From Acidimicrobiia bacterium UBA4744 (GTDB taxonomy: Bacteria > Actinomycetota > Acidimicrobiia > Spongiisociales > UBA4744): a stretch of DNA of 64,000 bases. Below the pieces are notes generated by a model that made no database searches, was not told the DNA's origin, and saw nothing but the letters and a program-made list of their open reading frames with translations. The position numbers and the translations under genes were made by a program. This document shows positions 2,401-63,634 of this stretch, piece after piece (position 1 is the stretch's first letter; every line of letters starts with the position of its first letter). The stretch spans positions 16,598-80,597 of the forward strand of contig DHIO01000050.1 in assembly GCA_002403855.1 (NCBI GenBank). Direction: 5' to 3'.

Positions 2401-2883
2401 GTGACGGACATCGGTTACAGAGCCCCGCAGGTATGCAGCCTGGTCGGGATAACCTACCGCCAGCTCGACTACTGGGCACGGACGGGACTGCTCAAGCCTT
2501 CGATTCAGAGCGCCAAGGGCTCCGGATCGCAGCGCCGATACTCGTTCACGGATGTTGTGCAACTGAAGGTCATCAAGCGACTGCTCGACGCGGGCATGAG
2601 CCTGAACAAGATTCGTCAAGCAATGGACATCCTGGTTGGACAGTTGCAGAGCGACCAGCCGCTCGTCGATGTCACGCTCCTTTCCGACGGACAGACCATC
2701 TACGCCGCCCACAGCGCCGACGAAGTCGTCGACGTGTTCAGACGTGGGCAGGGAGTATTCGGGATTGCCGTAGGTCCCGTGCAAGCAGAGCTCGAAGGTC
2801 AGATCCACCAGTTGTTCCCTGAGCTGGAAGAGACCGGTTCGGCGGCCACGGTCGCGGCGACCGGGGAGGTTAGAACGACCTGA
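2401..2883 (+). CDS. MerR family transcriptional regulator (Rv1828/Rv1830-like)
   Basis: GTG start with strong RBS. N-terminal MerR HTH (YRAPQVCSLVGITYRQLDYWARTGLL...RRYSFTDVVQLKVIKRLLDAGMSL). Only 160 aa; see the finding on a possible frame-split with the next ORF. Confidence 0.8.
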   Translation: MTDIGYRAPQVCSLVGITYRQLDYWARTGLLKPSIQSAKGSGSQRRYSFTDVVQLKVIKRLLDAGMSLNKIRQAMDILVGQLQSDQPLVDVTLLSDGQTIYAAHSADEVVDVFRRGQGVFGIAVGPVQAELEGQIHQLFPELEETGSAATVAATGEVRTT

Positions 2884-3038
2884 CCATCCACGAGACATTT
2901 GGGGCAGGACCGGCCGACACCGCCAACTTCGCCCACAACAGCGAGCGCCAGTTCGCTCGGCTTCTGGACTTCTACGGGATCGAGTGGCAGTACGAGCCGC
3001 GGGCGTTCCCCATCGCCTGGTCCGACGAAGGGAAACCG

Positions 3039-3335
3039 GTGAGGTTCTTCACACCGGACTTCTACCTTCCCGAAGAGAACCTCTTCATCGAGATCACCAC
3101 GATGAACCAGAAGCTCGTCACCAAGAAGAACCGAAAAGTACGGAGACTGAAGGACTTGTACCCGGACGTCAACTGCAAGGTCTTCTACCAGCGTGACTAT
3201 CTGCACCTGCTGGTCAAATACGGACTCGAAGAACCGGATCACATGGACGAGGTGCCGGCCCCGACCAGAATGCCCGGGCCGCCACAGGTCACGAGGCTCA
3301 CGAACGATGCTCCGAGCGACCAGGTGGCGGGATAA
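3039..3335 (+). CDS. small conserved hypothetical protein (start uncertain; coding signal extends upstream to ~2874 without a canonical start)
   Basis: Track ORF starts at GTG 3039. The in-frame 55 codons upstream (LTIHETFGAGPADTANFAHNSERQFARLLDFYGIEWQYEPRAFPIAWSDEGKP) have strong GC3 coding bias but no ATG/GTG/TTG. Confidence 0.45.
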   Translation: MRFFTPDFYLPEENLFIEITTMNQKLVTKKNRKVRRLKDLYPDVNCKVFYQRDYLHLLVKYGLEEPDHMDEVPAPTRMPGPPQVTRLTNDAPSDQVAG

Positions 3336-20194: not shown

Positions 20195-20959
20195 ATGGCT
20201 GGGACCGTCCAATCGACTACACAACGTGGTCAACACTCGGTCGACGGGCCGCCGACACCGAGACGGAGCTTCATGAGCAGGCTCAGTTTCGGCCACGCGG
20301 TCATGATCGTGGCCGGGCTTGCGGCATTCTTGCTCGTTTTCTCCCTTCTGAGGAATAGGGAGGAGACCTTTCAGATCGCAACTGCCGCAGGTGACCTCCG
20401 AGCGGGAACCACGGTCACCGCTGCCTCGTTCGCCTACGCCGAGTTGGGCGTGGCGGATCGCAACCTCCTCGAAGCTTTACTCGATCCGGAGCAGGTTGCG
20501 CGCGCAATCGAGGAAGGATGGGTCGTGACACGGAGAGTGCAGGAGGGCGATCCCGTCAGGATGAGCGACTTCCGCACGCAGGCCGACACCTCCGAGGTGA
20601 GGGCGATGAGTATCCCGATCGAGCGCGGACACGCAGTCGCCGGGGCGCTGCAGGCAGGCGACCTGATCGACGTCATCGTCGTACGCAAAGGCGTGGCCGA
20701 ATATGTCGTAACTGGGGCCGAGGTCCTCGATGTGGATGAAGGCGAAAGCCAGTTCGGCGGCGGTTTCAGCGTGACGCTTGCGGTCGATGGGCCCGCCAGT
20801 CTTCGCGTGGCATCCGCCTTGCGGGATGGCGGCATCGAGCTGGTGCGCGCAACAGGTGCGACCGGCGCAGATCCTTTGGACTTCTTCGATCCCCTTCAGG
20901 GCTCGTCCCCGGAGTCACCCCGTGGGGAACCGCCAACACTCGAGTCGAGGCCGGGCTGA
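20195..20959 (+). CDS. cpaB: Flp pilus assembly protein CpaB/RcpC-like (SAF domain)
   Basis: Single N-terminal TM (MSRLSFGHAVMIVAGLAAFLLVF) then SAF/CpaB-type domain. Alternative start ATG 20273 gives the canonical short cytoplasmic N-terminus. AT-rich promoter-like region 20130-20190. Confidence 0.7.
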   Translation: MAGTVQSTTQRGQHSVDGPPTPRRSFMSRLSFGHAVMIVAGLAAFLLVFSLLRNREETFQIATAAGDLRAGTTVTAASFAYAELGVADRNLLEALLDPEQVARAIEEGWVVTRRVQEGDPVRMSDFRTQADTSEVRAMSIPIERGHAVAGALQAGDLIDVIVVRKGVAEYVVTGAEVLDVDEGESQFGGGFSVTLAVDGPASLRVASALRDGGIELVRATGATGADPLDFFDPLQGSSPESPRGEPPTLESRPG

Positions 20960-20961
20960 CC

Positions 20962-22209
20962 ATGCCAGAACGGGAGCCGGTGATCGTGATGGCGCATTCG
21001 CCCCGGTCGTGGGCTCGGACGCTCAAGCAACATGTCATCGATCACGGTGGGGGCCGGATCATGGCATCGATCATGGCCGCCGAGGACGCCTCGCTCGACG
21101 GCTACGACGTCTTCGTTGCCGACGACACGACCTCATTCCTTACCCCGGGTTTCGTGGCAGATTTGCAGCGACGCGGGATCTCAGTGGTCGGCGTCTACAA
21201 CCCGGCCGAAGCGGAGGCGAGCGGCAAGCAAAGACTGCTGGCTCTCCAAGTCGATGATGTCATTGAGGCCGATGCTTCTCCCAACGAGTTCTTGCGTGTG
21301 CTGGCCCGCGCTTCAGTTGGATCACTCACCTATGACGATCCCGGGTTTTCCGCCCTGATGGCGGATCTGGCACGTCCAGCGCTCGAGTACGAGGACCCGT
21401 TCGACGGGTCTCCTCTCGGATCAGAGCGTGGTCGGTTGGTTGTGGTTGCCGGCGCATCTGGCGGGGTAGGAACGACCGAAGTCGCCATTGGGCTCGCCAC
21501 GCTACTGGCGAGAAGTGGCAACGGTCCCGTTCTGGTCGACGCCGACGACGTAGGCCCCTCGGTCGTCCAGCGGCTGGGCTTGCCCGTGCATCCGAACCTC
21601 CGCTCAGCCATCGATGTGGTACACAACCGCAACGGAGATCTCCGAGACTCTCTGATTCCGGTCACCGTCGGAGGTTTTGAAGTTTTGGGTGGGCTGGCGA
21701 ATCGGAGAGATTGGTATGAGCTGCGGCCGGCAGACGTCGCCGAGGCCGTTCTCGAGTTGGCCCGCATACGGGACCATATCGTCGTCAACGTCTCATCCCG
21801 TTTGGAGGATCTGCCGGCTATCGGCGGTCCGGCTCGGTACGGCGTGACCCGCTCCGTGTTGGCACTCGCGGATGTGGTCCTCCTGGTCGCGCGCCCAACC
21901 CCCGTCGGCGTCGCTCGGGTGCTCGACTGGATTGCCGAGGCAACCCCGTTGATTGAGGCCACCCCTCTCATCGTTGCGTTCAATGGCTTCGAAGGTGGCG
22001 CCTTCAAAGCAGCCGAAATCGAGGCAGAGCTTTGCCACGTCTACCAGCCTCGTGCAATTCGTTTCATTTCCCGCGACAAGAGCCTGGCCCACGCCACATG
22101 GCAAGGGATGCTGCCCAATCGTGGTCCGTTCTTGAAGTCGCTGGCAGATTTGTCGGCTGCTGTAGTTCCGTCGACCCGAGCACGCCGCAGGATCCGGAGA
22201 ACGCAGTGA
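20962..22209 (+). CDS. tadZ: TadZ/CpaE-like ParA/MinD-family ATPase with N-terminal pseudo-receiver domain
   Basis: Deviant Walker A VVVAGASGGVGTTEVAIGLA; N-terminal receiver-like domain. Confidence 0.8.
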   Translation: MPEREPVIVMAHSPRSWARTLKQHVIDHGGGRIMASIMAAEDASLDGYDVFVADDTTSFLTPGFVADLQRRGISVVGVYNPAEAEASGKQRLLALQVDDVIEADASPNEFLRVLARASVGSLTYDDPGFSALMADLARPALEYEDPFDGSPLGSERGRLVVVAGASGGVGTTEVAIGLATLLARSGNGPVLVDADDVGPSVVQRLGLPVHPNLRSAIDVVHNRNGDLRDSLIPVTVGGFEVLGGLANRRDWYELRPADVAEAVLELARIRDHIVVNVSSRLEDLPAIGGPARYGVTRSVLALADVVLLVARPTPVGVARVLDWIAEATPLIEATPLIVAFNGFEGGAFKAAEIEAELCHVYQPRAIRFISRDKSLAHATWQGMLPNRGPFLKSLADLSAAVVPSTRARRRIRRTQ

Positions 22210-23504
22210 CGACCGAAGCCGTCACCAGTGCCTACGAGAGCATTCGAAACCAGGCCCTGATAGGGCTCGACAGGGAGAAACTGGACCCGGGCAAGGATCC
22301 GGAAGCGGTTCAGCGGCTGGTAAGCGTCATCGTGGACGACTACCAATCTCAAGCCCACTCCGGAAACGCTCCTGCCCTTCGTGATACCGGGGACATGATT
22401 CGGCGGGTTCTGCGGTCTATCTCCGGATTTGGCGCATTGAGCCAGCTACTGGACAACCCAACCGTCGAGGAGATCTTCATCGAAGGGCCGCACGTCACCT
22501 ACATCGACGGTTCGGGTCGATTGCAGGTCTTGACTACGCCCACCACCGCCGACGAGAACCGGCAAACAATCAACCGTTTGCTCGCGGATACGGATCGGCA
22601 TATCGATACCGCAAACCCAATCGTGCAAGCTCGAGTGCTGAACGATTCGGCACGGCTCACCGCGGTCATACCCCCCGTCGCTGATGACGTGTCGGCCACC
22701 ATCCGCAGATACACCATGCGCAAAGAGACCCTCGGACATCTGGTTGAACTCAGGTCGGTATCCCCGGCAGCAGCCGGGTTCCTGTGGGCAGTCGCCCAAA
22801 CCAATGCCTCTGTTCTGGTATCCGGACAACCGGGCGCGGGCAAGACATCCCTGCTGGCCGCGTTGATGGCTGCAGCTCCTCCGACCCACTGTGTTCGTTG
22901 CATCGAAGAGGTCCGCGAATTGCATGTACCGTTGAGCCCTCACAGCTCGTACTACGAGGCTCGCGCCCCGGGTCTCGACGGCAGCGGAGAAGTGTCGGTC
23001 CGCGCCATGGTCAAGACGGTCCTGGCGATGCGGGCCGACCGGATCGTCGTCGGAGAAGTTCGGGGCGCCGAAGCCTTCGAACTCACGCGGGCTTCGAACG
23101 CTGGTTGTGGCTTCTCGTGTACGGTGCACGCAAACTCAGCACGAGAGGCTCTCAGCGCTATCGTCAACACAGCCCTGATGGCCGGCGAGAACGTCACCGA
23201 ACCGGTGGTCCGCAGGGTATTCGCCAGCACTATCGACTTCGTGATCCATCTTGATCGCGATCCGATAACCAGAGGACGGGAAGGCATCCGGCGGCAGATC
23301 CTCGAGATTCTGGCGGTTACTCCGTCGTTGACCGGGGATGATTTCACGACGGAACAAATCTTCAGCAGAGAAGCACTTGGTGCTCCGTTGCGATGGAGCG
23401 GCCATTTACCACCTGCGGCAACGGTCGACCTCATCGACCGCGCCCTGGCCGGCACCGGACACACCACCTACTCGATCTGCGAAGGACAGACAACCCCGCT
23501 ATGA
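22206..23504 (+). CDS. tadA: CpaF/TadA type II/IV secretion ATPase
   Basis: Walker A GQPGAGKTS, Asp/His boxes, RIVVGEVRGAEA. GTG start overlaps the tadZ stop (GTGA). Confidence 0.88.
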   Translation: MTTEAVTSAYESIRNQALIGLDREKLDPGKDPEAVQRLVSVIVDDYQSQAHSGNAPALRDTGDMIRRVLRSISGFGALSQLLDNPTVEEIFIEGPHVTYIDGSGRLQVLTTPTTADENRQTINRLLADTDRHIDTANPIVQARVLNDSARLTAVIPPVADDVSATIRRYTMRKETLGHLVELRSVSPAAAGFLWAVAQTNASVLVSGQPGAGKTSLLAALMAAAPPTHCVRCIEEVRELHVPLSPHSSYYEARAPGLDGSGEVSVRAMVKTVLAMRADRIVVGEVRGAEAFELTRASNAGCGFSCTVHANSAREALSAIVNTALMAGENVTEPVVRRVFASTIDFVIHLDRDPITRGREGIRRQILEILAVTPSLTGDDFTTEQIFSREALGAPLRWSGHLPPAATVDLIDRALAGTGHTTYSICEGQTTPL

Positions 23505-24409
23505 GGCTGCTGGCGGCTTTCATGGCCGGAATCTCGGTCTATCTGGCAGTCGGCTACATCACGGGCTTCGCTCCGAACCTTCGGTGGCGGATTGGACAAG
23601 AGGGCTCTGGTCTGAGCGGCCGGCAGGTGTGGCTGATGCAGGCCGGCGCTCGACTCTCGCCGGGCCAGTTCTTGGCGTGGTCCCTTCTTGTCGGGCTCTT
23701 GGCGTTCGTGATCGGCATGGCATTGACCGGAGTCCCCTGGGTCTCCCTTCCCCCGTCGGTGGCGTTGGCGTTTCTTCCTCGCTGGTACTTCAGTCGAAGG
23801 AGGATTCGGAGATTGAGCGAGGTTCACGAGGCCTGGCCGGATGGCCTTCGGCACATCGTGTCCTCTCTGCGATCGGGGATGAGCCTCACCGCCGCCCTCG
23901 ATGAACTAGCGCGGACCGGACCGGCACCGCTACGGCTTGCGTTCGGCCGCTACCCAGCGTTATCGAGAACCCTGGGAGTCGATGCCACCCTCGCTCTCAT
24001 TCGAGAAGAGCTGGCCGACCCCACTTCCGACCGGGTGATTGAGATCCTGATGGTGGCATATGAACGTGGCGGATCCATCGTTCCCAACGTGTTGACAGAT
24101 CTGTCTGATGCCACAACGAGTGATCTCCGGACCGTTGAAGAAATCCGCACGAATGCACTGGAGCAGCGAATCAATGGTCGCATTGTGTTCGTGGTTCCTT
24201 GGCTGGTGCTGTTGCTGCTCACTTCGCAGCCCGGTCCATTTCGGGACTTCTACTCGTCGGCAGCAGGGGTTGTCGTGGTAGTAGTGGGCGGCTTGATGAG
24301 CCTGGTCGGAGCTTGGCTGTTGGCGAAGTTGAGTCGTGACACCGTCGAACCTCGCGTCCTTGGCTCATCGGCGTCTGGACTACCGCCAAGTTCAGGATCG
24401 TCGTCGTGA
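23501..24409 (+). CDS. tadB: TadB-like type II secretion system F-family membrane protein
   Basis: GspF-like domain, N- and C-terminal TM segments. ATGA overlap with tadA. Confidence 0.75.
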   Translation: MRLLAAFMAGISVYLAVGYITGFAPNLRWRIGQEGSGLSGRQVWLMQAGARLSPGQFLAWSLLVGLLAFVIGMALTGVPWVSLPPSVALAFLPRWYFSRRRIRRLSEVHEAWPDGLRHIVSSLRSGMSLTAALDELARTGPAPLRLAFGRYPALSRTLGVDATLALIREELADPTSDRVIEILMVAYERGGSIVPNVLTDLSDATTSDLRTVEEIRTNALEQRINGRIVFVVPWLVLLLLTSQPGPFRDFYSSAAGVVVVVVGGLMSLVGAWLLAKLSRDTVEPRVLGSSASGLPPSSGSSS

Positions 24410-25374
24410 GCGAATCGGGGTGGGTGCTCCTGACGGCCGCACTGACAGCAATTGCAGCATCGGCAGCAGTCCACACGGTCGTGCGTCCCACAGTCCGGCT
24501 GAGCGGAAGGTTGCGCCCCTATTCGGCCGTCAGTCGCAGCATGTTGGGCAGCAGCACCCTACTCCTACGGTGGGAAACCAGCACAGGATTCGCAAAACGC
24601 ATGGGGCTCGGTCGGCTGCTGGGACCGCCGCTGACCGCCCTGGCCGGCCGGGTCGGGTCCTTCATCGAAGCAACCAGTGAGGAACGGCTGGTGATCAAGA
24701 TCCGGCAATCGGGTTTGTTCACCAACACGAATGGGGCGGCGCGGCTCCAGGAGTACCGCATACGCCAATTCACCACGGCAGTTGCCGGAGCCGCGGCAGC
24801 CTCGGCTTTGGGCCTGTTCCTCGCCCGACCGACACTGCTGGTCCTCATTCTGGCGGTGACCGGCTTCGTCGGTGGAGCGGCCTACTGGCGGAGCCGGATC
24901 GACCGAGCGATTGAGGCTCGCCGTACTCGAATGGAAATCGAGTTGTACACCGTCAACCAACAATTGGCCTTGCGGGTTCGGATCGGGGGTGGAGTGATCG
25001 CTGCAGTTCGGCAGTTGGTCGGCCGGAGTCGCGGAGCCGTGGTCGAGGAGCTTCGAGAAGCCATGCGACTGATCCAGGGGGGTATGCCTGCATCGAAGTC
25101 ATTTGACCGGCTGGCAGACCTGACCCCTGAACCGCAGGCCGCCAGGTTGTATCAGCTGCTCGCCACATCGGAAGAACGCGGATCCGACCTCGCAGAAGCT
25201 TTGCTCTCTATGAGTGAAGACATTCGTGAGGATCGCCGGGAGGCAATGCGGAGACTCGCCACGAAACGGAGAGCAGCCATGCTCATCCCGATCGTGGGGC
25301 TGATGGCTCCCATCATCATCCTTTTTGTCGGGGCGCCACTTCCCTGGATCGTGTTTGGGGGGTTGGGGAGTTGA
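24406..25374 (+). CDS. tadC: TadC-like type II secretion system F-family membrane protein
   Basis: Second GspF-like platform protein. GTGA overlap with tadB. Confidence 0.75.
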   Translation: MSESGWVLLTAALTAIAASAAVHTVVRPTVRLSGRLRPYSAVSRSMLGSSTLLLRWETSTGFAKRMGLGRLLGPPLTALAGRVGSFIEATSEERLVIKIRQSGLFTNTNGAARLQEYRIRQFTTAVAGAAAASALGLFLARPTLLVLILAVTGFVGGAAYWRSRIDRAIEARRTRMEIELYTVNQQLALRVRIGGGVIAAVRQLVGRSRGAVVEELREAMRLIQGGMPASKSFDRLADLTPEPQAARLYQLLATSEERGSDLAEALLSMSEDIREDRREAMRRLATKRRAAMLIPIVGLMAPIIILFVGAPLPWIVFGGLGS

Positions 25375-27553: not shown

Positions 27554-28768
27554 TCACGAATGTTCTACAAGAACAACTGCCGTTAACGAATCGACCAACC
27601 TCTTGCCAACTTCTCGTCTCAGACTGGGTGGTCGAGGTCGGTAAGGGCGGCCGTCTGGCCTGATGAAGATCAGGTCTCCGTTGGGGCTTCCTTCGATCTT
27701 CCATCCCGCTTCGTGGACGAGCCGGTGGTGGTAGCCGCAGAGGGTTACGAGATTGTCGAGGTCGGTGGGTCCTCCGTTCGACCAGTGGACAAGATGGTGG
27801 GCGTGGGCGAATCGTGTGCGTTCACAGCCCGGGAACCGGCAGCCCTGGTCGCGCCGGCGGATCTGGCGGTTCAGCCAGGCAGGGATGGTACGACTGGTGC
27901 GCCCGATACCGACCGGGAGGCCATTGGATCCTTCCAGCACGGCCTGCAGGCGGGCATCACAGCTCAACCGGCGTGCGGACTCGGCGGTGAGGGTGGAACC
28001 ACCTTCTATTCCTCCGGTCCCGCGACCGTTGGTGAGGGTTTCGACGTCAACGTGCACGACCACGTTGGCCCGGTCCGGGTCCGGGTCAGATGCCAGAGAA
28101 CCCGAGGCGATCTCTATCAAGGCGTCGGCGAGACGCACATCGGGATCCTCGTAGATCTGGCGATCGGCGTTTTGGGGGACCCGACGTTCGGCCCGTTCGA
28201 GTGCCTTCTCGACGACGGCGCCATCGGCGCCGGGAATCCGCCCGCGGAGGTGGAACCACTGACGGTCTCGATCCCACCACTTCGTCAAGGATCGTCGGCT
28301 GCGGGTCCTTTCGTCCTCCTCCGGAGCCCGATTGCGCCGGGCCAGGGTATGAACTTGGGAAGCCGAGAGGCCTTGAGCCTCTTCGGCGAGGATCTCCTCG
28401 GTGTCCGGGCCGGCGAACCGGGTCAACGAACGAACCTTGTCCCACGACAAACGCCCTTCGCCAAAGGCCTTCGCAATGGTGGGAAGCTCCTCGAGCCCCG
28501 CACCGACGGACACCAACTGGGAGGCGGTCCCGTACGCGACCCCCAGTTGGGCGACTAGCCAGGCGCTCATCGAGGTAGCTCCGTCTTCCTTCCAGGATTC
28601 GGTGCGGTCGTGCGCGGCGATCACCTCCACCAGCGTACGGCGAATGGCGCACTCGGCGGCGAACAACTGCGCGATGGCGTCCGACCGTTCGACGGCCGGT
28701 CTGCTCTCATACGGATTGCCATCCACGACTTCCCCTTCCATCGGGTGGGGAAGTGATGGTTCAACCAT
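27554..28768 (-). CDS. DUF222 + HNH endonuclease domain protein (13E12-repeat family-like)
   Basis: C-terminal HNH motif (DQGCRFPGCERTRFAHAHHLVHWSNGGPTDLDNLVTLCGYHH); N-terminal DUF222-like region. Start ATG 28768 (MVEPSL). Convergent with the last Tad gene across a 3-nt gap. Confidence 0.7.
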   Translation of the reverse strand: MVEPSLPHPMEGEVVDGNPYESRPAVERSDAIAQLFAAECAIRRTLVEVIAAHDRTESWKEDGATSMSAWLVAQLGVAYGTASQLVSVGAGLEELPTIAKAFGEGRLSWDKVRSLTRFAGPDTEEILAEEAQGLSASQVHTLARRNRAPEEDERTRSRRSLTKWWDRDRQWFHLRGRIPGADGAVVEKALERAERRVPQNADRQIYEDPDVRLADALIEIASGSLASDPDPDRANVVVHVDVETLTNGRGTGGIEGGSTLTAESARRLSCDARLQAVLEGSNGLPVGIGRTSRTIPAWLNRQIRRRDQGCRFPGCERTRFAHAHHLVHWSNGGPTDLDNLVTLCGYHHRLVHEAGWKIEGSPNGDLIFIRPDGRPYRPRPPSLRREVGKRLVDSLTAVVLVEHS

Positions 28769-28995
28769 ACGACCCGGGTGTGACAGAGAATGCCCTGCCT
28801 CATCGCTCGGACCCAACACGACCGGCGCGCAGGTTCGGACGCGGAGTTGATCCACCCCCAGGCGCCACCGGTCGAGAGCTCGCCGAGCGCATGGGAGTGG
28901 CTGCACGACGCACAGGCAGCGGTTCCACGAAAGACCTCCCACCCGGGGACCATTTGGGGATCTCTTCATCGAGACGCGCGATTGCGGCGGAGGCT

Positions 28996-52946: not shown

Positions 52947-54194
52947 TTACTCTGCCTGGACTTCGATTGGATCGGAGACGGCGTCTTCTCGGCGCGCCAG
53001 AGCCAAGAATGGGATTGCGAATACCTGAATGGCTGCAGAGACGGCGTAGGAGGCGGAGTATCCGGCTACGTCGGCCACCCGACCCAGCACAGGCTGGGCC
53101 GCCACTCCGCCCGTGGAGCCCATGAGGGCGTCGAAAGAGAGAACCGTGGCACGCTGTTCCGACGGGATCAACCCGTTCAGGTAGGCCTGGCGAATGGGGG
53201 CAGCGGCGGCGAAGGTCAGTGCCCAGGCCACCAGGAGGGCGATGGCCAACCAGAAGTTCGAGGTCCAGCCGATCAGTGCCAGCGTCGCCACGCTGACGGC
53301 TCCGGCCAGTATCAACGCGTGGGTACGGCGGGCAAAGAGCTTCCGAACCCGCGGAACGACCAAACCGCCCATGATCTGGGCCCCGGCAACAATGGCTGCA
53401 GCCAGTCCGGCGATGCCAAAAGCATCGGGATCGCCGTACAGCTCGAGCAGGTAGGGCTGCATGGCGTAGAAGGCATAGAAGCCGACGCCCATCGAGAATG
53501 GGGCGGCCAGCATCACCCAGCGAATCGGTGGCTTGCGCCATCCGGCATCTATCGAGGACCTGAGAACGGTCTTCACTTCATCGATGGGACCCTTCCCCTT
53601 GGTGGGAGTGAAACCGAGATCGCGCATCAGGAGGAAAGCGGCCAGCATGGTCAGGCCCAGCATGACGGCTCGTATGATGTACGGCACGCCCAGGTTCGTG
53701 GCCTGAGCGATGAAGCCTCCGGCGACCGACCCCGTCAGCATGGCGACCCCCGCCACCGACTGGCCCTTGGCGAAGACCGATTCGAGATCTCCCTCGAATT
53801 TCGTAGACGTGAGCGCATCCACCAGCCATGCCTCTACCGCACCGGAGAAGAAAGTGAAACCCAATCCGATGGAAACCGAGGCGACCGCCCACCCCCAGAA
53901 CGGTGCCTGCGTTTGCCACATGAAGAGGTAGAGGAGTGTGGATACCAGGAGCGTTGCCGCCCCTAGGAGGTAGGAGACGCGCCGGCCCCGCACGTCGGCG
54001 ATCACGCCGGTGGGCACTTCGAAGACCACCTGGCCCGCCGTGAAGAACGCGTTGGCTGCAAATGCCTCGGTGTTGGTCAGCCCGGCGTCCAGCAGGAACA
54101 GCGTGTTGATGCCCCAGATGAAAGACGCCGCAAGAGTGGAAAGAAGGGTGAGCAGGAGGTACGTGCGTTGTACCCGGCGTGCTCCCTCGGTCAT
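52947..54194 (-). CDS. MFS transporter
   Basis: 12 TM; MFS motif GVIADVRGRR between TM2 and TM3. Start ATG 54194. Confidence 0.8.
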   Translation of the reverse strand: MTEGARRVQRTYLLLTLLSTLAASFIWGINTLFLLDAGLTNTEAFAANAFFTAGQVVFEVPTGVIADVRGRRVSYLLGAATLLVSTLLYLFMWQTQAPFWGWAVASVSIGLGFTFFSGAVEAWLVDALTSTKFEGDLESVFAKGQSVAGVAMLTGSVAGGFIAQATNLGVPYIIRAVMLGLTMLAAFLLMRDLGFTPTKGKGPIDEVKTVLRSSIDAGWRKPPIRWVMLAAPFSMGVGFYAFYAMQPYLLELYGDPDAFGIAGLAAAIVAGAQIMGGLVVPRVRKLFARRTHALILAGAVSVATLALIGWTSNFWLAIALLVAWALTFAAAAPIRQAYLNGLIPSEQRATVLSFDALMGSTGGVAAQPVLGRVADVAGYSASYAVSAAIQVFAIPFLALARREDAVSDPIEVQAE

Positions 54195-54241
54195 GGGGAA
54201 CGACCCTACACCGCCGGAACCACTTGACCGACGCGACGCGC

Positions 54242-55423
54242 TTGACTGGGAGAGTGCACAAGATCTCGGTGGCAGAGCGGCGCCGGCGGTTGGGACGCCG
54301 GCATCACCTGTCACAACCAGCGGCAGGAATCGGCGAGGTTGCGGACGACCTCGTTGGTCTTCACTCGAGCGATCCGGTCACGGTCTACCTCTCGGCGCGC
54401 GCCCGGGTCGACGGTCTGACCGTGGGTCACGTCGACGAGGCCCTCTATGAGGACCGCTCGCTGGTGCGAATGCTCGGCATGCGCCGCACGATGTTTGTGG
54501 TTTCTCTCGAGCTGGCCTCCATCATGGATGTGGCCTGCACCCGAGGGTACGTGCCCGCCGAGCGACGCCGTCTCGTGGGCCTCCTCGAGGACCAACTGGT
54601 GGAAAGGGACGGAGAAGCTCGGCTCGAGGAGGTGATCGAGAGAACGATGGACGCTCTCAACCGTCTGGGAGAGGCCACCGCCAAGGAACTGACTGCCGAG
54701 GTGCCGGAGCTGAGCGACAGACTCGCCTTCGGAGAAGGCAAGACATGGCAAGGAACCATGGGCCTCTCGACCCGGGTGCTGTTCCTTCTGGCCACCGACC
54801 GGCGCATCATCCGGGGCCGCCCGGTGGGAACCTGGAAGTCCAGCCAGTACCGGTGGGCTCGTTTCGACCGTTGGGTGCCGGGAGGTCTGGAAGAGGTAGA
54901 GCCGAGCGAAGCGCGTAAGAGACTGGCTCGACGTTGGTTGCGGTCGTTCGGGCCGGGCACGCCGGCAGACCTCAAATGGTGGACCGGTTGGACGGTGAAA
55001 GAAACTCAAACGGCCTTGGAAGCGGTCGATGCGGTGGAAGTCGGGCTGCGGGACGGGAAGGGGTACCTCCTACCTGACGATCTGGGTTCCGACCGAGAGG
55101 TGGGGGAGTGGGTGGCATTCTTGCCCGGGCTCGATCCGACGGTGATGGGCTGGAAGGAGCGGGACTGGTACCTCGGCGGGTATCAGAGCGAGCTCTTCGA
55201 TGCCAACGGCAACGCCGGTCCGACCGTGTGGTGGAACGGCCGTATTGTGGGCGGTTGGGGACAGGGGCCGGACGGAGTCGTGCTGTATGAGTTGCTCGAG
55301 GAAGTGCCGGCAGGCATTTTGGAGCGGATCGAAGCCGAAGCAGAACGGCTCACCGAATGGCTGGCCGGGGAAGTGGTGAGGCCGCGCTTCCCAACCGCTC
55401 TGGAGAAACGCCTCCGGAGCTAG
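54242..55423 (+). CDS. winged-helix DNA-binding domain protein, AlkZ/YcaQ-like (putative crosslink-repair DNA glycosylase family)
   Basis: N-terminal ISVAERRRRLGRRHHL...SSDP and overall ~390-aa architecture typical of the YcaQ/AlkZ family. TTG/GTG start at 54242/54254. Confidence 0.55.
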   Translation: MTGRVHKISVAERRRRLGRRHHLSQPAAGIGEVADDLVGLHSSDPVTVYLSARARVDGLTVGHVDEALYEDRSLVRMLGMRRTMFVVSLELASIMDVACTRGYVPAERRRLVGLLEDQLVERDGEARLEEVIERTMDALNRLGEATAKELTAEVPELSDRLAFGEGKTWQGTMGLSTRVLFLLATDRRIIRGRPVGTWKSSQYRWARFDRWVPGGLEEVEPSEARKRLARRWLRSFGPGTPADLKWWTGWTVKETQTALEAVDAVEVGLRDGKGYLLPDDLGSDREVGEWVAFLPGLDPTVMGWKERDWYLGGYQSELFDANGNAGPTVWWNGRIVGGWGQGPDGVVLYELLEEVPAGILERIEAEAERLTEWLAGEVVRPRFPTALEKRLRS

Positions 55424-59598: not shown

Positions 59599-60366
59599 TC
59601 AACCCACGGGGCGGGTTGATTCCCCTACCCCACCGGTCTTGCGGCTGCGGCGCAGTAGGGCGGCATATCCGCCGAGGCCGATCAACGCGAAGGCAAACCA
59701 CTGAATCGCGTACGCCAGATGGGAACCCGCCGTGAGCTCCGGAGGGGCCACCGGCACCGGCAACGAACCGGGCTGGACGGGCATCTGATCGGCCAGTTCA
59801 ACTGAGACCGGTGCCAGCACATAGGATGATTGTTGCTGGATACGAGGAATGTCGATCCAGTAGACGCGCTCCAGGGAGCCTTCTGCCGGATCGCGGGGAC
59901 CGAGCGCCGGCGCCGACTGCGAGTCGCGGACGGTGCCCGTCAGCCCTACGCGCCCCGTCGGGGGAAGGGCCGGTGACACCGGCGGCGTATCCAATTCCAG
60001 CGGCACCCACCCTCGGTTGATCAACACCGCCGTGGAGCCATCGGCCTGTACCAAGGGTGTGACCACATGGAATCCGGCTTCGCCGTTGTTCGTGCGCGAG
60101 CGGACGAGGATTTCCTCACTCACGTCGAACGTGCCTTCTACGAACGTCTGGCGGTATTCGAGCTCGTCGGAGGGCTCCGTCAGGAGCCGGCTGAGATCGG
60201 ACGGCGGGGCGGCGAGCCGCTCCGCCACGATGCTGTTGAAAGAGCGGCGTTCTTCCAGCCGGTCCAACTGCCAGATCCCCAGCCGGATGAATACGGCCGC
60301 AACCAACAGGACCAACAGGTGGCCCGCTATCCACAAGGGAGTGAGGTATCTCTGCATCCGAAGCAC
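59599..60366 (-). CDS. SURF1 family cytochrome oxidase assembly protein
   Basis: N-terminal TM (LWIAGHLLVLLVAAVFIRLGIWQLDR), C-terminal TM, SURF1 layout, 255 aa. Confidence 0.75.
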   Translation of the reverse strand: MLRMQRYLTPLWIAGHLLVLLVAAVFIRLGIWQLDRLEERRSFNSIVAERLAAPPSDLSRLLTEPSDELEYRQTFVEGTFDVSEEILVRSRTNNGEAGFHVVTPLVQADGSTAVLINRGWVPLELDTPPVSPALPPTGRVGLTGTVRDSQSAPALGPRDPAEGSLERVYWIDIPRIQQQSSYVLAPVSVELADQMPVQPGSLPVPVAPPELTAGSHLAYAIQWFAFALIGLGGYAALLRRSRKTGGVGESTRPVG

Positions 60367-60385
60367 GCATTATGGCCTTCCTGAG

Positions 60386-60562
60386 TCAGGCCACGGCTTC
60401 CTTGTCCAGTCCGAGCAGGGCCCGGGCGAAGTCGAGCGGGTCGAGACTCTCCGGAGCCGACAGAGCAACCGGCCGCTGCCTCCAATCGGCCACGGATTCC
60501 GGACGGACCGCCTCGTTCTCGATGAGGAGATCGGCGAGATCGTCGGTCCAGAACCACGGCAT
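60386..60562 (-). CDS. small hypothetical protein (58 aa), not in the ORF track
   Basis: ATG preceded by GGAGGTAGCTC RBS; MPWFWTDDLADLLIENEAVRPESVADWRQRPVALSAPESLDPLDFARALLGLDKEAVA. GC3-biased; 19 nt upstream of SURF1 on the same strand. Confidence 0.45.
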   Translation of the reverse strand: MPWFWTDDLADLLIENEAVRPESVADWRQRPVALSAPESLDPLDFARALLGLDKEAVA

Positions 60563-60660
60563 GAGCTACCTCCGGAGGGAGTGGGCGGGAGAGGAACACT
60601 TCTACCGTACCCCCCCTGTCAAGAGCCTCCGACCAGGCGAAATGCGCCGGTGGTCGCGCG

Positions 60661-62259
60661 CTAGCCAGATCCTGCCAGGGAGGTGCCACCAGTCCGGCGC
60701 GGATCCGCCGCCGCGACGAGTTCTCCGTCCGAATCCCAGTAGGCGGCGCCGACGCCACCGAAGTACATATCGATCGTTTCGAAGCGACGATTCGGGTAAC
60801 CGAGCCGATCAATGGGGAGCGAACCTTCATAGGCCACGAGCCATCCGTTCTTCTCGTCGTACTCGACGTGGACCCGCGGCTCGGCTATGGCGTCCGTGAG
60901 GGGCATGCCCAACTCGGTGAAGTTGAGCACGGTAGACAGGATGGCCGTCGTGATCCGGTCGGCACCCGGTGAGCCGACCGCCAGAATCCTGCCATCTTCA
61001 TGGCGGGCAACCGTTGGTGCCATATTGGAGGCGAGTCGGGTACCCGGAGCAAGCACGTGCAAACCCCGCCGGTTCAACTCGACCTCGCCCAGGCAGTTGT
61101 TCATCCACATCCCGGTACCGGGGGGCATCACCCCCGAGCCGTAGCCGGAAGAGATGGTGATAGAACATGCCGCCCCGTTCGAATCAACCGTGGACGTGTG
61201 AACGGTTGAAGGGGACTTCGAGAACGACTCGAGGTCCCCCTTGTCGGCAGCGCTCAGCAAGCGAAGCGCGTCACGGGAGAGATCGTCGCTGAAGTCGAGA
61301 TGCTCTCGCCGGAAGCCGAGCACCGCCATCTGGGCCCGGATGAGCCGGTCGTAGTCGTCCGGGGTCCAACTCTTCTCGGGATGGCCGTTCATGATCAGGA
61401 GCAGGGCCGTCAGGGTGATACCACCTATCGCCGGCGGCGGGTTGGTGACGATGTGCCATCCTTCGATCACCGCTTCGAGCGGCCGGCGAACCAGCGGCCG
61501 GTACTCGGCTAGATCCTCGGCAGTGATCAACCCTTCGTTCTCCTCCATATCGGCGGCAATCAACCGGGCAATCTCGCCCTGGTACATTGCCGCGCGAGGG
61601 CCCTGTTCGGCAATCATCCGCAGCGTCTCCGCCCGATGAGCAACTCGGATGGTGCCACCGCGCGGAATGAGGGAGCCATCTTCGCTGTGTAGCGCCTCTC
61701 TACTCGGCTCATGCCAGCCGAACACAACCTCGTGGCTGTACCGAAGGTAATCGCTGGAAGCTTGCGAGAGTGGAAAGCCGTCCCGGGCCAACTCGTAGGC
61801 CGGTTCGACCAGCAGCGGCCAGGGGAGCCGACCATACCGGGCCGATGCCATACCGAGCGCCGCCAATGCTCCCGGCGTCCCGACCGAGCCGTGTCCAACC
61901 GTCGTGGTGACTCCTCCGCCGTACTCCATGGTCACGTCGAACACCCCTTTCCCGAAGCGCTCTCGGGGCAGCCCCCGCCCCGGCATCTCGACGTAGCCGT
62001 CGATGGTCACGGCATCCGAACCCGGCACCCAGATCGTGACAAACCCTCCACCACCCAGCGCGCAAACCCCCGGTTCGGTGATCACCGAAACCAGGGCAGC
62101 AGCCACTGCTCCATCCACGGCGTTACCGCCCTCGTCGGCGATCCGCGCTGCGGCATCGGCTGCGAGCTGCGAGCTGGAAGCGGTGGCTATTCTCGGCATG
62201 AGGGCGCCAGCGTAGCCGGAACCCCGTCCTCCTGGTCTTGGCTGCACCGGCTCGGTCAT
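60661..62259 (-). CDS. ggt: gamma-glutamyltransferase
   Basis: GGNAVDGAVAAALVSVITEP N-terminal motif, autoprocessing Thr region (TVHTSTVDSNG), C-terminal GGT small-subunit motifs. Start ATG 62259 overlaps the stop of the upstream SSB-like gene (ATGA). Confidence 0.85.
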   Translation of the reverse strand: MTEPVQPRPGGRGSGYAGALMPRIATASSSQLAADAAARIADEGGNAVDGAVAAALVSVITEPGVCALGGGGFVTIWVPGSDAVTIDGYVEMPGRGLPRERFGKGVFDVTMEYGGGVTTTVGHGSVGTPGALAALGMASARYGRLPWPLLVEPAYELARDGFPLSQASSDYLRYSHEVVFGWHEPSREALHSEDGSLIPRGGTIRVAHRAETLRMIAEQGPRAAMYQGEIARLIAADMEENEGLITAEDLAEYRPLVRRPLEAVIEGWHIVTNPPPAIGGITLTALLLIMNGHPEKSWTPDDYDRLIRAQMAVLGFRREHLDFSDDLSRDALRLLSAADKGDLESFSKSPSTVHTSTVDSNGAACSITISSGYGSGVMPPGTGMWMNNCLGEVELNRRGLHVLAPGTRLASNMAPTVARHEDGRILAVGSPGADRITTAILSTVLNFTELGMPLTDAIAEPRVHVEYDEKNGWLVAYEGSLPIDRLGYPNRRFETIDMYFGGVGAAYWDSDGELVAAADPRRTGGTSLAGSG

Positions 62260-62585
62260 TTCGAAGGGGTCACCTCGATCTGGAATTGCCGGAAGGTGAC
62301 CTGCTCCGCCACTACCTCCACGCGGCTCCGGCGCCCTTCCGGATTCGACCAGAACCTCCGCTGCACAGCACCGGCCACCCACACCCGGTCGCCGATGCGG
62401 GGTTCCGGCACCAGTAGGTCGTCGGATGGATCCCACAGCGTGACCGGCAACACATCCACCCGATGTCGTGGTTCGTCGGTCCGCACGGTGACCAGCAATC
62501 TGACCAACCGCGCTCCGGATTGGAACACCCGCAGTTCGGGTGGCGCGGCCAGTCGACCGGAAAGCACGACGAGATTGAGGTCCAT
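62256..62585 (-). CDS. short single-stranded-DNA-binding (SSB-like OB-fold) protein lacking the acidic tail
   Basis: MDLNLVVLSGRLAAPPELRVFQSGARLVRLLVTV...DVLPVTLWD...IGDRVWVAGAVQRRFWSNPEGRRSRVEVVAEQV aligns along its length with the SSB OB domain. 109 aa, no C-terminal Gly/acidic tail. Confidence 0.65.
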   Translation of the reverse strand: MDLNLVVLSGRLAAPPELRVFQSGARLVRLLVTVRTDEPRHRVDVLPVTLWDPSDDLLVPEPRIGDRVWVAGAVQRRFWSNPEGRRSRVEVVAEQVTFRQFQIEVTPSK

Positions 62586-62710
62586 AGCTCCTCCTCGAGG
62601 TAGCCGGGGAGAGGCGGGAGGCAGAGTGCAAAACGTATCCGAGGGGAGTGACACCATCTCGTCCCCCCGGCCGGTTGGTGGGCGCCGGCAGTCGCCGTAG
62701 TGTTACCCCA

Positions 62711-63634
62711 ATGGGTACGAGCCGAGCTATCGAATTGGCCGATGGCCTCTTTGCGATCGATGCCTGGATGGAGGAGGGTCCGGAGCGTCTTGCCTGCTAC
62801 CTGTTCGACACGCCGGAACGGGTTCTGGTCGAGGTCGGACCTTCGAACACCCTCCATCATCTGACCGATGCGCTTGACGAACTGGGAGTCGACGAGGTTG
62901 CCACCATCGTCGTCACCCATATCCACATCGACCACGCGGGCGGCGCGGGACAGCTCGCGCGTCGTTACCCGAAGGCGAGCATCGGCGTCCACAAGTCCGG
63001 CGCTCGTCACCTTGCCGCGCCCGACCGCCTCTGGTCTTCGGCGATTCAGGTCTTCGGAGAGGAATGGCTCACATCGAATTGGGGCCCTCTGGAACCCGTT
63101 CCGGAAGAGCGAATACTCGTGCTCGATGAAGGCGATCGCGTCGCGCTGGGACGAGGACGGTTCCTGGACGTCATGCACACCCCCGGCCATGCCAGGCATC
63201 ACATCGTGTTTCACGACGGAGAATCCGGCGGAATGTTCGTCGGCGACTCGGTTGGTCTCTGCTATCCGCACGGCCACTTCGTTCAGCCCGTGACACCGCC
63301 GCCGGACTTCGACGCAGGTCTTGTCGTCGAGCAGATGCACCGGATGCTAGAGCGGCAACCGACCTTCTTGGGGTTTGCGCACTTCGGTCCCGACTATCGG
63401 GTTGCCGAGACCCTGGCCAAGGCCGAGGAACGAATCTGGGATTGGGTCCGGGTGGTGGAAAAAACGGCCCACCTCGACGGCCAAACCGCAGCCGAAGAGC
63501 TCAAGCGGTGGAACCGCCGTAACTACCTCGATTCGGGGTTCAGCCAAGATGACATCCTCGAGTACGAAGCCAAGACGTTTTGGCCGATGCAGGTAGCCGG
63601 AATCAGGCGATGGCTGGCGACCCGGAAGAGTTGA
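62711..63634 (+). CDS. MBL-fold metallo-hydrolase
   Basis: HIHIDHAGG metal-binding motif, downstream His/Asp ligands. Confidence 0.8.
   Translation: MGTSRAIELADGLFAIDAWMEEGPERLACYLFDTPERVLVEVGPSNTLHHLTDALDELGVDEVATIVVTHIHIDHAGGAGQLARRYPKASIGVHKSGARHLAAPDRLWSSAIQVFGEEWLTSNWGPLEPVPEERILVLDEGDRVALGRGRFLDVMHTPGHARHHIVFHDGESGGMFVGDSVGLCYPHGHFVQPVTPPPDFDAGLVVEQMHRMLERQPTFLGFAHFGPDYRVAETLAKAEERIWDWVRVVEKTAHLDGQTAAEELKRWNRRNYLDSGFSQDDILEYEAKTFWPMQVAGIRRWLATRKS

Follow-up and report, generated by a model that had tools for sequence, protein, structure and literature searches.

A conserved tail-less SSB-family gene of Acidimicrobiia behind a predicted DNA-damage-type promoter

The window analysed here, a stretch of 64,000 nucleotides from Acidimicrobiia bacterium UBA4744, carries a genuine gene for an SSB-family paralog without the partner-recruiting tail, which is referred to below as SSBL. 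From comparison of its loci, SSBL appears to be an accessory stand-alone gene near the rRNA operon that is kept across the Acidimicrobiia, and the conserved promoter predicted in front of it is of the type that serves the actinobacterial response to DNA damage (PafBC). Translational coupling to the gamma-glutamyltransferase-family gene (ggt) that follows SSBL is improbable. We hold with moderate confidence that SSBL is a DNA-damage-inducible accessory SSB whose role is independent of ggt.

The gene and its protein family

The gene and the features that flank the SSBL-ggt pair are:

62256..62585, minus strand: SSBL, a 109-aa tail-less SSB-family OB-fold protein (Pfam SSB, AF2 and Foldseek, homologs)
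62711..63634, plus strand: divergent metallo-beta-lactamase-fold (MBL) hydrolase, 307 aa in public assemblies (Pfam Lactamase_B, gene calls)
59599..60562, minus strand: downstream backbone, made up of a conserved 58-aa ORF (60562..60386) and SURF1 (60366..59599) (Pfam SURF1 153 bits, synteny)

SSBL ends in a TGA at 62258-62256 on the minus strand and has a Shine-Dalgarno sequence, GAGGAGGAG, at 62596-62588, 3 nt before its ATG as read from the sequence. The product matches the Pfam SSB family (PF00436) over residues 4-98 with 51.1 bits (cut-off 26; E 1.6e-13). Its AF2 model (pLDDT 87.5) has an SSB-type OB fold which Foldseek matches to bacterial SSB OB domains at TM 0.75-0.87 and E about 1e-8, the top matches being B. 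subtilis SsbA/SsbB and Mtb SSB. The SSB-like OB fold that a sequence-only reading had assigned to this ORF is therefore borne out. Every NCBIfam SSB model scored under its cut-off, and the match was of the PRK06752 type. The sole match in a phage library was the generic phage SSB family phrog_44, and the PADLOC defence-system library gave no match. Homologs of ggt stop short of the SSBL frame, so the frame is not covered by ggt coding sequence. There is no ground for the fear that such a gene could easily be overlooked: annotations by NCBI and JGI already name homologs as 'single-stranded DNA-binding protein'.

A total of 881 SSBL homologs were found, representing at least 237 species-level genomes, nearly all labelled Acidimicrobiia or Actinomycetota, and an alignment of 27 sequences contains 35 invariant residues. 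The lack of a Gly-rich linker and acidic tip, read earlier from the single sequence, extends to the family: the acidic ...PF C-terminal tip was found in none of 120 homologs, in which the stretch past the last OB strand is 8-24 aa long, 7% Gly and not conserved. Two stacking aromatics of E. coli SSB have invariant counterparts (F60 is W51 and W88 is W79), W54 is replaced by V45, and the W40 position lies inside the deleted part of loop L23, which is shortened in a protein that also has many invariant Arg. Since the counterparts of W40 and W54 are lost, ssDNA binding by SSBL is something that we infer. Natural tandem fusions of two OB domains occur in the family (P0122, P0161, P0264); these would fit self-association of SSBL as a putative homo-oligomer.

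The position of SSBL near an rRNA operon is conserved. Its neighbours are an MBL or TPR gene upstream and ggt or SURF1 downstream, and it does not lie in the rpsF-priB-rpsR-rplI operon. Of the 37 loci in which ggt or another non-SURF1 gene follows SSBL, 25 have the MBL gene directly beside SSBL in divergent orientation. Genes for thioredoxin and MsrB, a thiol/redox theme, recur near the SSBL-ggt pair. At gathering thresholds Rfam gave no match in the window.

The upstream motif and leader

The following features are relevant to expression of SSBL:

62632..62653, minus strand: predicted PafBC/RecA-NDp-type bipartite promoter motif, TGTCACTC-CCCTCGGA-TACGTT (whole: TGTCACTCCCCTCGGATACGTT) (motif counts, published consensus)
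62586..62627, minus strand: predicted SSBL 5' UTR of about 40 nt, with a C-rich tract and the Shine-Dalgarno sequence (read from sequence)
28764..28785, minus strand: second motif copy in the window, TGTCACAC-CCGGGTCG-TATGGT, followed by a hairpin that occludes the Shine-Dalgarno sequence
27554..28726, minus strand: DUF222 + HNH endonuclease, GTG start at 28726, downstream of the second motif (Pfam DUF222 90 bits, HNH 31.7 bits)

The motif of the SSBL loci is 22 nt long, TGTC(A/G)C-N10-(T/C)AnnnT. In the window its -26 element is at 62653-62648 and its -10 box at 62637-62632, and the predicted transcription start would lie near 62625-62627. In a relaxed form (nGTC-N12-nAnnnT, 20-55 nt before the SSBL start codon) the motif was found at 77 of 79 loci against 0.029 expected per region, and in its strict form at 53 of 79 against 0.011 expected, although these counts, like those of neighbouring genes, are non-independent because the loci are phylogenetically related and share ancestry. 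Among 70 unique motifs, position 1 is T in 61, position 5 is A or G in 57 and position 6 is C in 52, and none of these preferences was imposed by the search. No sigma-70-type -35/-10 pair was found in 60300-62800, and no SOS box was found upstream of SSBL at up to 3 mismatches.

The consensus published for PafBC/RecA-NDp is tGTCgg(N10)tA(N3)T, with an invariant GTC and without a -35 element (PMC8635444). Mycobacterial promoters of this kind are 22-nt bipartite sites with the GTC at -26 and TAnnnT at -10, and the SSBL motif agrees with them in geometry and in the GTC; however, the bases after the GTC are mostly AC, giving a -26 element of TGTCAC, as opposed to the GG of mycobacterial tGTCgg. 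This departure and the relatedness of the loci would also fit a site for another regulator or sigma factor, or a motif kept by descent only, with SSBL constitutive or otherwise regulated. So would the search for a WYL protein, which found none in the window or the SSBL loci (844 kb) with a synthetic WYL consensus, a query that picks up PafBC in the PDB. We nevertheless regard such explanations as unlikely, given that the intergenic flanks of the motif have diverged while the GTC, the spacing and the -10 A/T persist in clades whose neighbouring genes differ, and that the same architecture precedes unrelated nuclease genes. The Pup locus is present in the Acidimicrobiales (PMC3511204), and the literature searched yielded no report of PafBC from this order.

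When 844 kb of Acidimicrobiia DNA was scanned with the motif, the only recurrent families downstream were SSBL (54) and LAGLIDADG nucleases (16), the latter located in neighbouring 23S rRNA genes. Intergenic copies in the window are that of SSBL and the one before the DUF222-HNH nuclease, where the hairpin after the motif folds at -16 kcal/mol (z -2.8). No copy of the motif precedes the gene for the AlkZ-like glycosylase of the window. Putative HNH endonucleases have been described as damage-induced (PMC8151990).

Per-sequence folds of the SSBL leader show, in most relatives, a hairpin in which a CTTCCCC-like tract pairs with the Shine-Dalgarno sequence. It is significant in some copies (z -2.8 to -4.3), but the copy of the window, at z 0.14, is not. 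When the 5' leaders were folded as a consensus from a MAFFT alignment, no structure emerged, because that alignment is not structure-aware.

Related proteins and the neighbouring glutamyltransferase gene

The best profile match of SSBL is SsbB of B. subtilis (hhalign 95%, TM about 0.8), a competence-induced paralog (113 aa, PDB 3VDY) which, like SSBL, has only an OB domain, measures about 110 aa and lacks the acidic tip. Firmicute SsbB has a specialised promoter that responds to stress or to a particular condition, and its presumed role is to protect ssDNA and not to recruit partners. The two proteins come from different phyla and share about 30% identity; loop L23 is shorter in SSBL, which lacks equivalents of W40 and W54, and the predicted regulation is by PafBC-type DNA damage for SSBL as opposed to ComK for Firmicute SsbB. 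Within the Actinobacteria, Streptomyces coelicolor SsbB (SCO2683, PDB 4DAM) is likewise a second SSB without an acidic tail, and is non-essential and monocistronic with an atypical promoter (PMC3616714). It is however 156 aa long with a 50-aa C-terminal region, whereas SSBL has 8-24 residues past the OB fold, and it acts in spore chromosome segregation. The nearest PDB chain annotated as S. coelicolor SSB (3eiv) matched SSBL at an E value of only 0.77.

Another tail-less OB protein derived from SSB is E. coli PriB, of about 104 aa. Membership of SSBL in the PriB family was rejected: hhalign gives a probability of 4% to E. coli PriB, which is not a significant profile similarity and compares with 95% to SsbB; the top 50 structural matches do not include PriB; and the operons as well as the taxa differ, SSBL being outside the rpsF operon. 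SSBL could still be a PriB-like analog that assists PriA when replication restarts after damage, in a phylum where PriB, DnaT and PriC are absent; the shared architecture of roughly 105 aa would fit this, as would a damage-type promoter for a restart factor and tandem fusions suggestive of a dimer-based unit as in PriB. Against it stand the same profile, structural and operon results, and no linkage to PriA was seen, so that we think this role improbable.

The junction of SSBL with the gene downstream contains three features:

60661..62199, minus strand: ggt-family Ntn hydrolase, 512 aa from the conserved ATG at 62199 (PF01019 295.8 bits; start by comparison with relatives)
62257..62259, minus strand: non-conserved in-frame ATG that forms the ATGA overlap with the SSBL stop and adds 20 residues to ggt
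62209..62214, minus strand: -10-like box TACGCT, 9 nt before the ggt ATG, within the conserved CCGGCTACGCTGGCGC block (junction alignment and wider set)

The Pfam match agrees with the earlier identification of the downstream gene as ggt. The protein belongs to the Pfam family, but the TIGR00066 equivalog model for canonical GGT scored 272.9 bits, under its cut-off of 357.85. The sequence-only reading further held that the product is periplasmic or secreted, which finds no support here: the Pfam domain begins at residue 20 of 512 and no hydrophobic signal-like segment was apparent by eye.

That reading also took the stop of SSBL to overlap the start of ggt, with translational coupling and co-expression of the two genes. 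The letters ATGA are indeed at 62259-62256, and public gene calls for the source genome start ggt from the 62259 ATG (532 aa), but this ATG is probably not the ggt start. In relatives ggt is conserved from the ATG at 62199 onwards, with no conservation at the protein level over the 20 codons before it. Of 13 relatives checked, six (L006, L031, L038, L073, L015 and L056) have no in-frame ggt start upstream of the conserved ATG. The overlap is peculiar to the source genome. The gap between the genes is 8-69 nt in nearly all relatives, with one of 404 nt and one overlap at an extrapolated start. A TAnnnT box 8-9 nt before the conserved ggt start is found at most loci in which ggt follows SSBL; this conserved box suggests that ggt has its own promoter and a leaderless or near-leaderless transcript. 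A search for terminators between SSBL and ggt gave none, so there may be read-through from the SSBL promoter into ggt.

At the 76 informative species-level loci the gene after SSBL is ggt in 26, directly SURF1 in 39 and another gene in 11, so the pairing with ggt is confined to a minority. The pair is kept in one locus (L001) despite both flanks differing, and this, together with the overlap in the source genome, the lack of a terminator and the thiol/redox theme nearby, is what can be said for a coupled and functionally linked pair. Set against the adjacency counts, the non-conserved overlap and the conserved box before the ggt start, we consider such a link very improbable. The data suggest instead that ggt is a lineage-specific neighbour of SSBL with its own near-leaderless promoter, and not a functional partner.

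Proposed role of SSBL

No canonical tailed ssb was found in 844 kb of Acidimicrobiia DNA by tblastn with the Mtb, E. coli and B. subtilis SSBs; the sole match was an ICE-borne 138-aa SSB at one locus (L051), from which a homolog search recovered ICE-type 136-aa SSBs, none of them on SSBL contigs. Of two further SSBs, P0366 is an actinobacterial SSB in an rpsF-ssb-rplI context and P0365 is without informative context. The acidic tail of SSB is essential, which counts against SSBL as a replicative SSB. That small-genome Acidimicrobiia replicate with SSBL as their main or only SSB, its tail lost, would agree with its very high conservation (35 invariant positions), its conserved place near the rRNA operon and the lack of a canonical ssb in the examined sequence, which is a small part of each genome. 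It hardly seems credible, however, for a gene outside the rpsF operon with a damage-type and not a housekeeping promoter, as bacterial SSBs recruit their partners through the tail, which is described as highly conserved (PMC3616714).

As a damage-inducible accessory protein, SSBL would act when DNA damage or replication stress causes ssDNA to accumulate. A PafBC-like WYL activator would then adapt the housekeeping RNA polymerase to the SSBL promoter and SSBL would be made in bulk, with the leader hairpin that occludes the Shine-Dalgarno sequence possibly adding translational control. The homo-oligomer would coat and protect ssDNA and leave the SSB interactome unrecruited, in a manner similar to that of the competence-induced SsbB of Firmicutes. 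There is precedent: a second ssb is present in about 90% of the Actinobacteria surveyed (PMC3616714), and induction of M. tuberculosis ssb by mitomycin C is independent of RecA and has been attributed to PafBC (PMC8151990). In M. tuberculosis it is the canonical ssb that is in the regulon, whereas here a tail-less paralog lies behind the motif.

A more speculative extension, which we regard as improbable, is that SSBL is a dedicated output of the PafBC circuit, which senses ssDNA, and acts back on it, or alternatively a PriB-like partner of PriA, and that the intron-encoded LAGLIDADG and the DUF222-HNH nucleases are damage-induced in the same regulon. Lacking a tail, SSBL would bind and withhold the ssDNA by which PafBC (and RecA) are activated. 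If this is true, sequestration by SSBL would be a negative feedback, and gaps would be shielded from the SSB interactome.

Under the damage-inducible reading an apparent oddity is removed, as the SSB in this region is not tied to a glutamyltransferase. It also gives the testable prediction that throughout one actinobacterial class a minimal tail-less SSB is retained under a LexA-independent type of damage-response promoter. Most experimental work on the PafBC-type damage response has so far come from mycobacteria. If confirmed, our findings would extend a circuit of this type to the deep-branching and mostly uncultured Acidimicrobiia and would add to the damage response a protein that coats ssDNA without recruiting partners. 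They would also suggest that selfish nucleases, both the homing endonucleases of rRNA introns and the HNH genes, have tapped the same promoter.

SSBL belongs to the SSB family and lacks the tail

The sequence-only reading described a tail-less, SSB-like OB-fold protein of 109 aa (SSBL), and this description was borne out.

62585-62256 (-): SSBL ORF, 109 codons, ATG at 62585 and TGA at 62258-62256 (sequence reading)
3 nt upstream of the SSBL ATG (-): Shine-Dalgarno GAGGAGGAG (sequence reading)

The Pfam SSB model, the HMM check then proposed, matched residues 4-98 at 51.1 bits (cut-off 26). All NCBIfam SSB models scored under their own cut-offs, the top ones being short-SSB models. Searching the PDB by sequence matched SSBL to OB domains from Deinococcus/Thermus SSB and from SsbB and SsbA of B. 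subtilis. An AlphaFold model, with 27 homologs as input, was a five-stranded OB fold (pLDDT 87.5), for which Foldseek ranked bacterial SSBs highest (TM 0.75-0.87), among them B. subtilis SsbA/SsbB and M. tuberculosis SSB. PriB was not among the top 50 of these structural matches, and profile comparison gave 95% probability to B. subtilis SsbB against 4% to E. coli PriB. The Pfam, PDB, Foldseek and profile matches therefore place SSBL in the SSB family.

The gene is conserved, with 881 homologs at E <= 1e-3, 181 clusters matched at E <= 1e-10 in a library of one representative per 50%-identity cluster (mostly 100-130 aa), and relatives in at least 237 genomes among the GTDB species representatives scanned. 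The 120 matches listed of the 881 are 103-136 aa long (median 109) and 64-83% identical to SSBL, the one exception being an identical copy. Those that carry a name are annotated as 'single-stranded DNA-binding protein' and come from MAGs of Acidimicrobiia or Actinomycetota. Past the last beta strand there are just 8-24 residues, which are 7% Gly, weakly acidic and unconserved, and none of the 120 listed ends in PF; the tail has been lost.

Across 27 SSBL sequences 35 positions are invariant, including F21, W51, W69, W79 and many arginines. In an alignment to E. coli SSB, the counterparts of F60 and W88 are W51 and W79, W54 is replaced by V45, and W40 falls within a part of the L23 loop that is about 8 residues shorter in SSBL. 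In three homologous proteins (P0122, P0161 and P0264; 206-221 aa) two SSBL OB domains are naturally fused in tandem, recalling the two-OB SSBs of Deinococcus/Thermus, which argues that the SSBL unit self-associates.

SSBL is independent of ggt

SSBL had also been read as translationally coupled, by an ATGA overlap, to a downstream gamma-glutamyltransferase gene (ggt), and this was not supported.

60661-62199 (-): ggt, from its conserved ATG; PF01019, 295 bits, under the TIGR00066 equivalog cut-off
62200-62214 (-): stretch holding a TAnnnT box, 8-9 nt 5' of the ggt start

Automatic gene callers place the ggt start at the overlap (532 aa). Close relatives share a nucleotide block, CCGGCTACGCTGGCGCnCTCATG, abutting the ATG equivalent to 62199, and are unrelated in sequence farther upstream; in six related SSBL-bearing loci (L006, L031, L038, L073, L015 and L056) the ggt frame offers no start codon from the preceding stop up to the ggt ATG. 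The overlap is thus peculiar to this genome, and on this comparison 62199 is the conserved start. The TAnnnT box is kept by ggt homologs in L006-L077, at 44-83% protein identity and including the more distant ggt-bearing loci, and ggt would have its own promoter and a leaderless or near-leaderless mRNA. Neither a terminator nor a sigma-70-type promoter was found in the SSBL-ggt gap, so some read-through into ggt is possible. No signal-peptide-like segment was seen by eye at the ggt N-terminus.

The gene pair was also sought in related genomes: genes neighbouring SSBL in the window served as tblastn queries on 80 species-level loci. SSBL was followed by ggt in 26 of the 76 informative loci, directly by SURF1 in 39 and by another gene in 11. 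The conserved backbone order is rRNA operon, TPR protein, (divergent metallo-beta-lactamase-fold hydrolase), SSBL, (ggt), 58-aa ORF, SURF1, further genes and thioredoxin. The 58-aa ORF (60386-60562, (-), beginning MPWFWTDDLADLL) had no Pfam or PHROG match and is conserved next to SURF1, on its upstream side, in many loci, some of them without ggt. Elsewhere the window carries an AlkZ-like DNA glycosylase (54179-55423, (+)), a bifunctional-nuclease-domain protein (763-1284, (+)) and a Tad/Flp pilus gene set (20195-25374, (+)).

Two MAGs have two SSBL loci each (L010 and L051; L052 and L079). One pair is chromosomal plus ICE-borne; the other, whose upstream regions are near-identical, could reflect a strain or binning duplicate. 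The ICE-like element (L051:3576-10259) encodes a tyrosine integrase, an excisionase-like HTH protein, SSBL, an ArdC-N/M78 protein, a 138-aa SSB terminating ...DDPERPFEE and a TrwC relaxase. Metagenomes commonly contain related ICE-type SSBs of 136 aa.

A conserved promoter motif upstream of SSBL

The 120 nt upstream of the SSBL start codon were laid out for all loci, and a bipartite element is conserved there amid otherwise diverged sequence.

62653-62632 (-): window copy of the motif, TGTCACTC-CCCTCGGA-TACGTT
28785-28764 (-): second intergenic strict match, TGTCACACCCGGGTCGTATGGT, the sole other one in the window, laid out as the SSBL promoter
27554-28785 (-): DUF222 + HNH endonuclease gene (GTG 28726) with this upstream motif

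The strict motif TGTC[AG]-N11-[TC]AnnnT was present in 53/79 loci (0.011 expected per region) and the relaxed motif nGTC-N12-nAnnnT, whose 3' end lies 20-55 nt from the ATG, in 77/79 (0.029 expected). As the loci are interrelated, these counts do not represent independent events, although the loci cover 61-82% protein identity to SSBL and clades whose neighbours differ. Only L036 and the ICE-borne copy in L051 lacked the relaxed motif. Bases outside the search pattern were biased too: among 70 unique motifs, 61 had T at position 1, 57 had A/G at position 5, 52 had C at position 6 and 67 had T/C at position 17. The geometry is that of the mycobacterial PafBC (RecA-NDp) promoter, a DNA-damage-type class with consensus tGTCgg(N10)tA(N3)T, in which PafB contacts a strictly conserved GTC at -26, and which has a SigA -10 box and no -35 (PMC8635444). 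No sigma-70 -35/-10 pair or actinobacterial SOS box was found upstream of SSBL.

Strict matches in the window number six, not above chance, and no damage-type motif was found upstream of its AlkZ-like gene. In M. tuberculosis, damage induces putative HNH endonucleases (PMC8151990). When 844 kb of Acidimicrobiia DNA was scanned for a strict motif followed by an ORF, the only recurrent families were SSBL (54) and LAGLIDADG endonucleases (16). The LAGLIDADG ORFs sit within 23S rRNA genes that are interrupted and closely precede the SSBL locus, and group I introns were matched by Rfam in some cases (L007:1400-1938, L024:1368-1896 and 2644-3179, L037:3321-3960 and L086:5460-5983 among them; three copies in L049). 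A TGTC-type motif was directly upstream in 20/27 LAGLIDADG regions, ending mostly 6-7 nt 5' of the start codon in the copies examined in detail, a leaderless layout. The motif-led SSBL, LAGLIDADG and HNH genes thus all act on DNA, and the pattern suggests that intron homing endonucleases may be expressed in a damage-responsive manner.

If transcription begins roughly 7 nt downstream of the -10 box, SSBL leaders are 23-47 nt long. Folded singly, most formed a hairpin with the Shine-Dalgarno within its 3' arm, and stem sequence varied by clade with complementarity kept.

Leader stem pair, example 1: GCACUUCCCC...GGGGAGAGUG
Leader stem pair, example 2: GCGGCAUCC...GGAAUGCCGU
Leader stem pair, example 3: GCUCCUCC...GGAGGAGC

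Against dinucleotide shuffles some copies were significant (L013 z -4.3; HNH leader z -2.8) and the window SSBL leader was not (z 0.14); a consensus fold from the MAFFT alignment gave no structure. The window's DUF222 + HNH leader has an SD-occluding hairpin (-16 kcal/mol) closely resembling SSBL leaders of other clades. The SD-occluding hairpin of SSBL is offered as a lead only.

Predicted role of SSBL

The best-supported reading, and a reasonably probable one, is that SSBL is an accessory tail-less SSB. As ssDNA accumulates, a PafBC-like activator would turn on its synthesis, and SSBL would then coat ssDNA and recruit no SSB partners, on the model of Firmicutes SsbB. We infer the regulator's identity and damage induction, and likewise ssDNA binding and oligomeric state. 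ssDNA is reported to activate PafBC (PMC11804915), and mitomycin C induction of the canonical M. tuberculosis ssb without RecA has been ascribed to PafBC (PMC8151990). No WYL protein was found in the 844 kb of Acidimicrobiia DNA examined for PafBC, nor, apart from the ICE-borne 138-aa SSB of L051, a canonical tailed SSB in these 844 kb from SSBL loci. A limited literature search on Acidimicrobiales found a reported Pup locus and no pafBC of SSBL-carrying genomes.

Actinobacteria commonly carry a second ssb gene, with about 90% of species surveyed having at least two, and Streptomyces coelicolor SsbB has no acidic tail (PMC3616714). As tail-less SSB paralogs and PafBC-type ssb control are both already known, SSBL is a further case of known types. 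Its interest lies in its class-wide conservation and minimal architecture, in the damage control predicted for a class that has been little studied, and in selfish nucleases having possibly captured the same promoter type.
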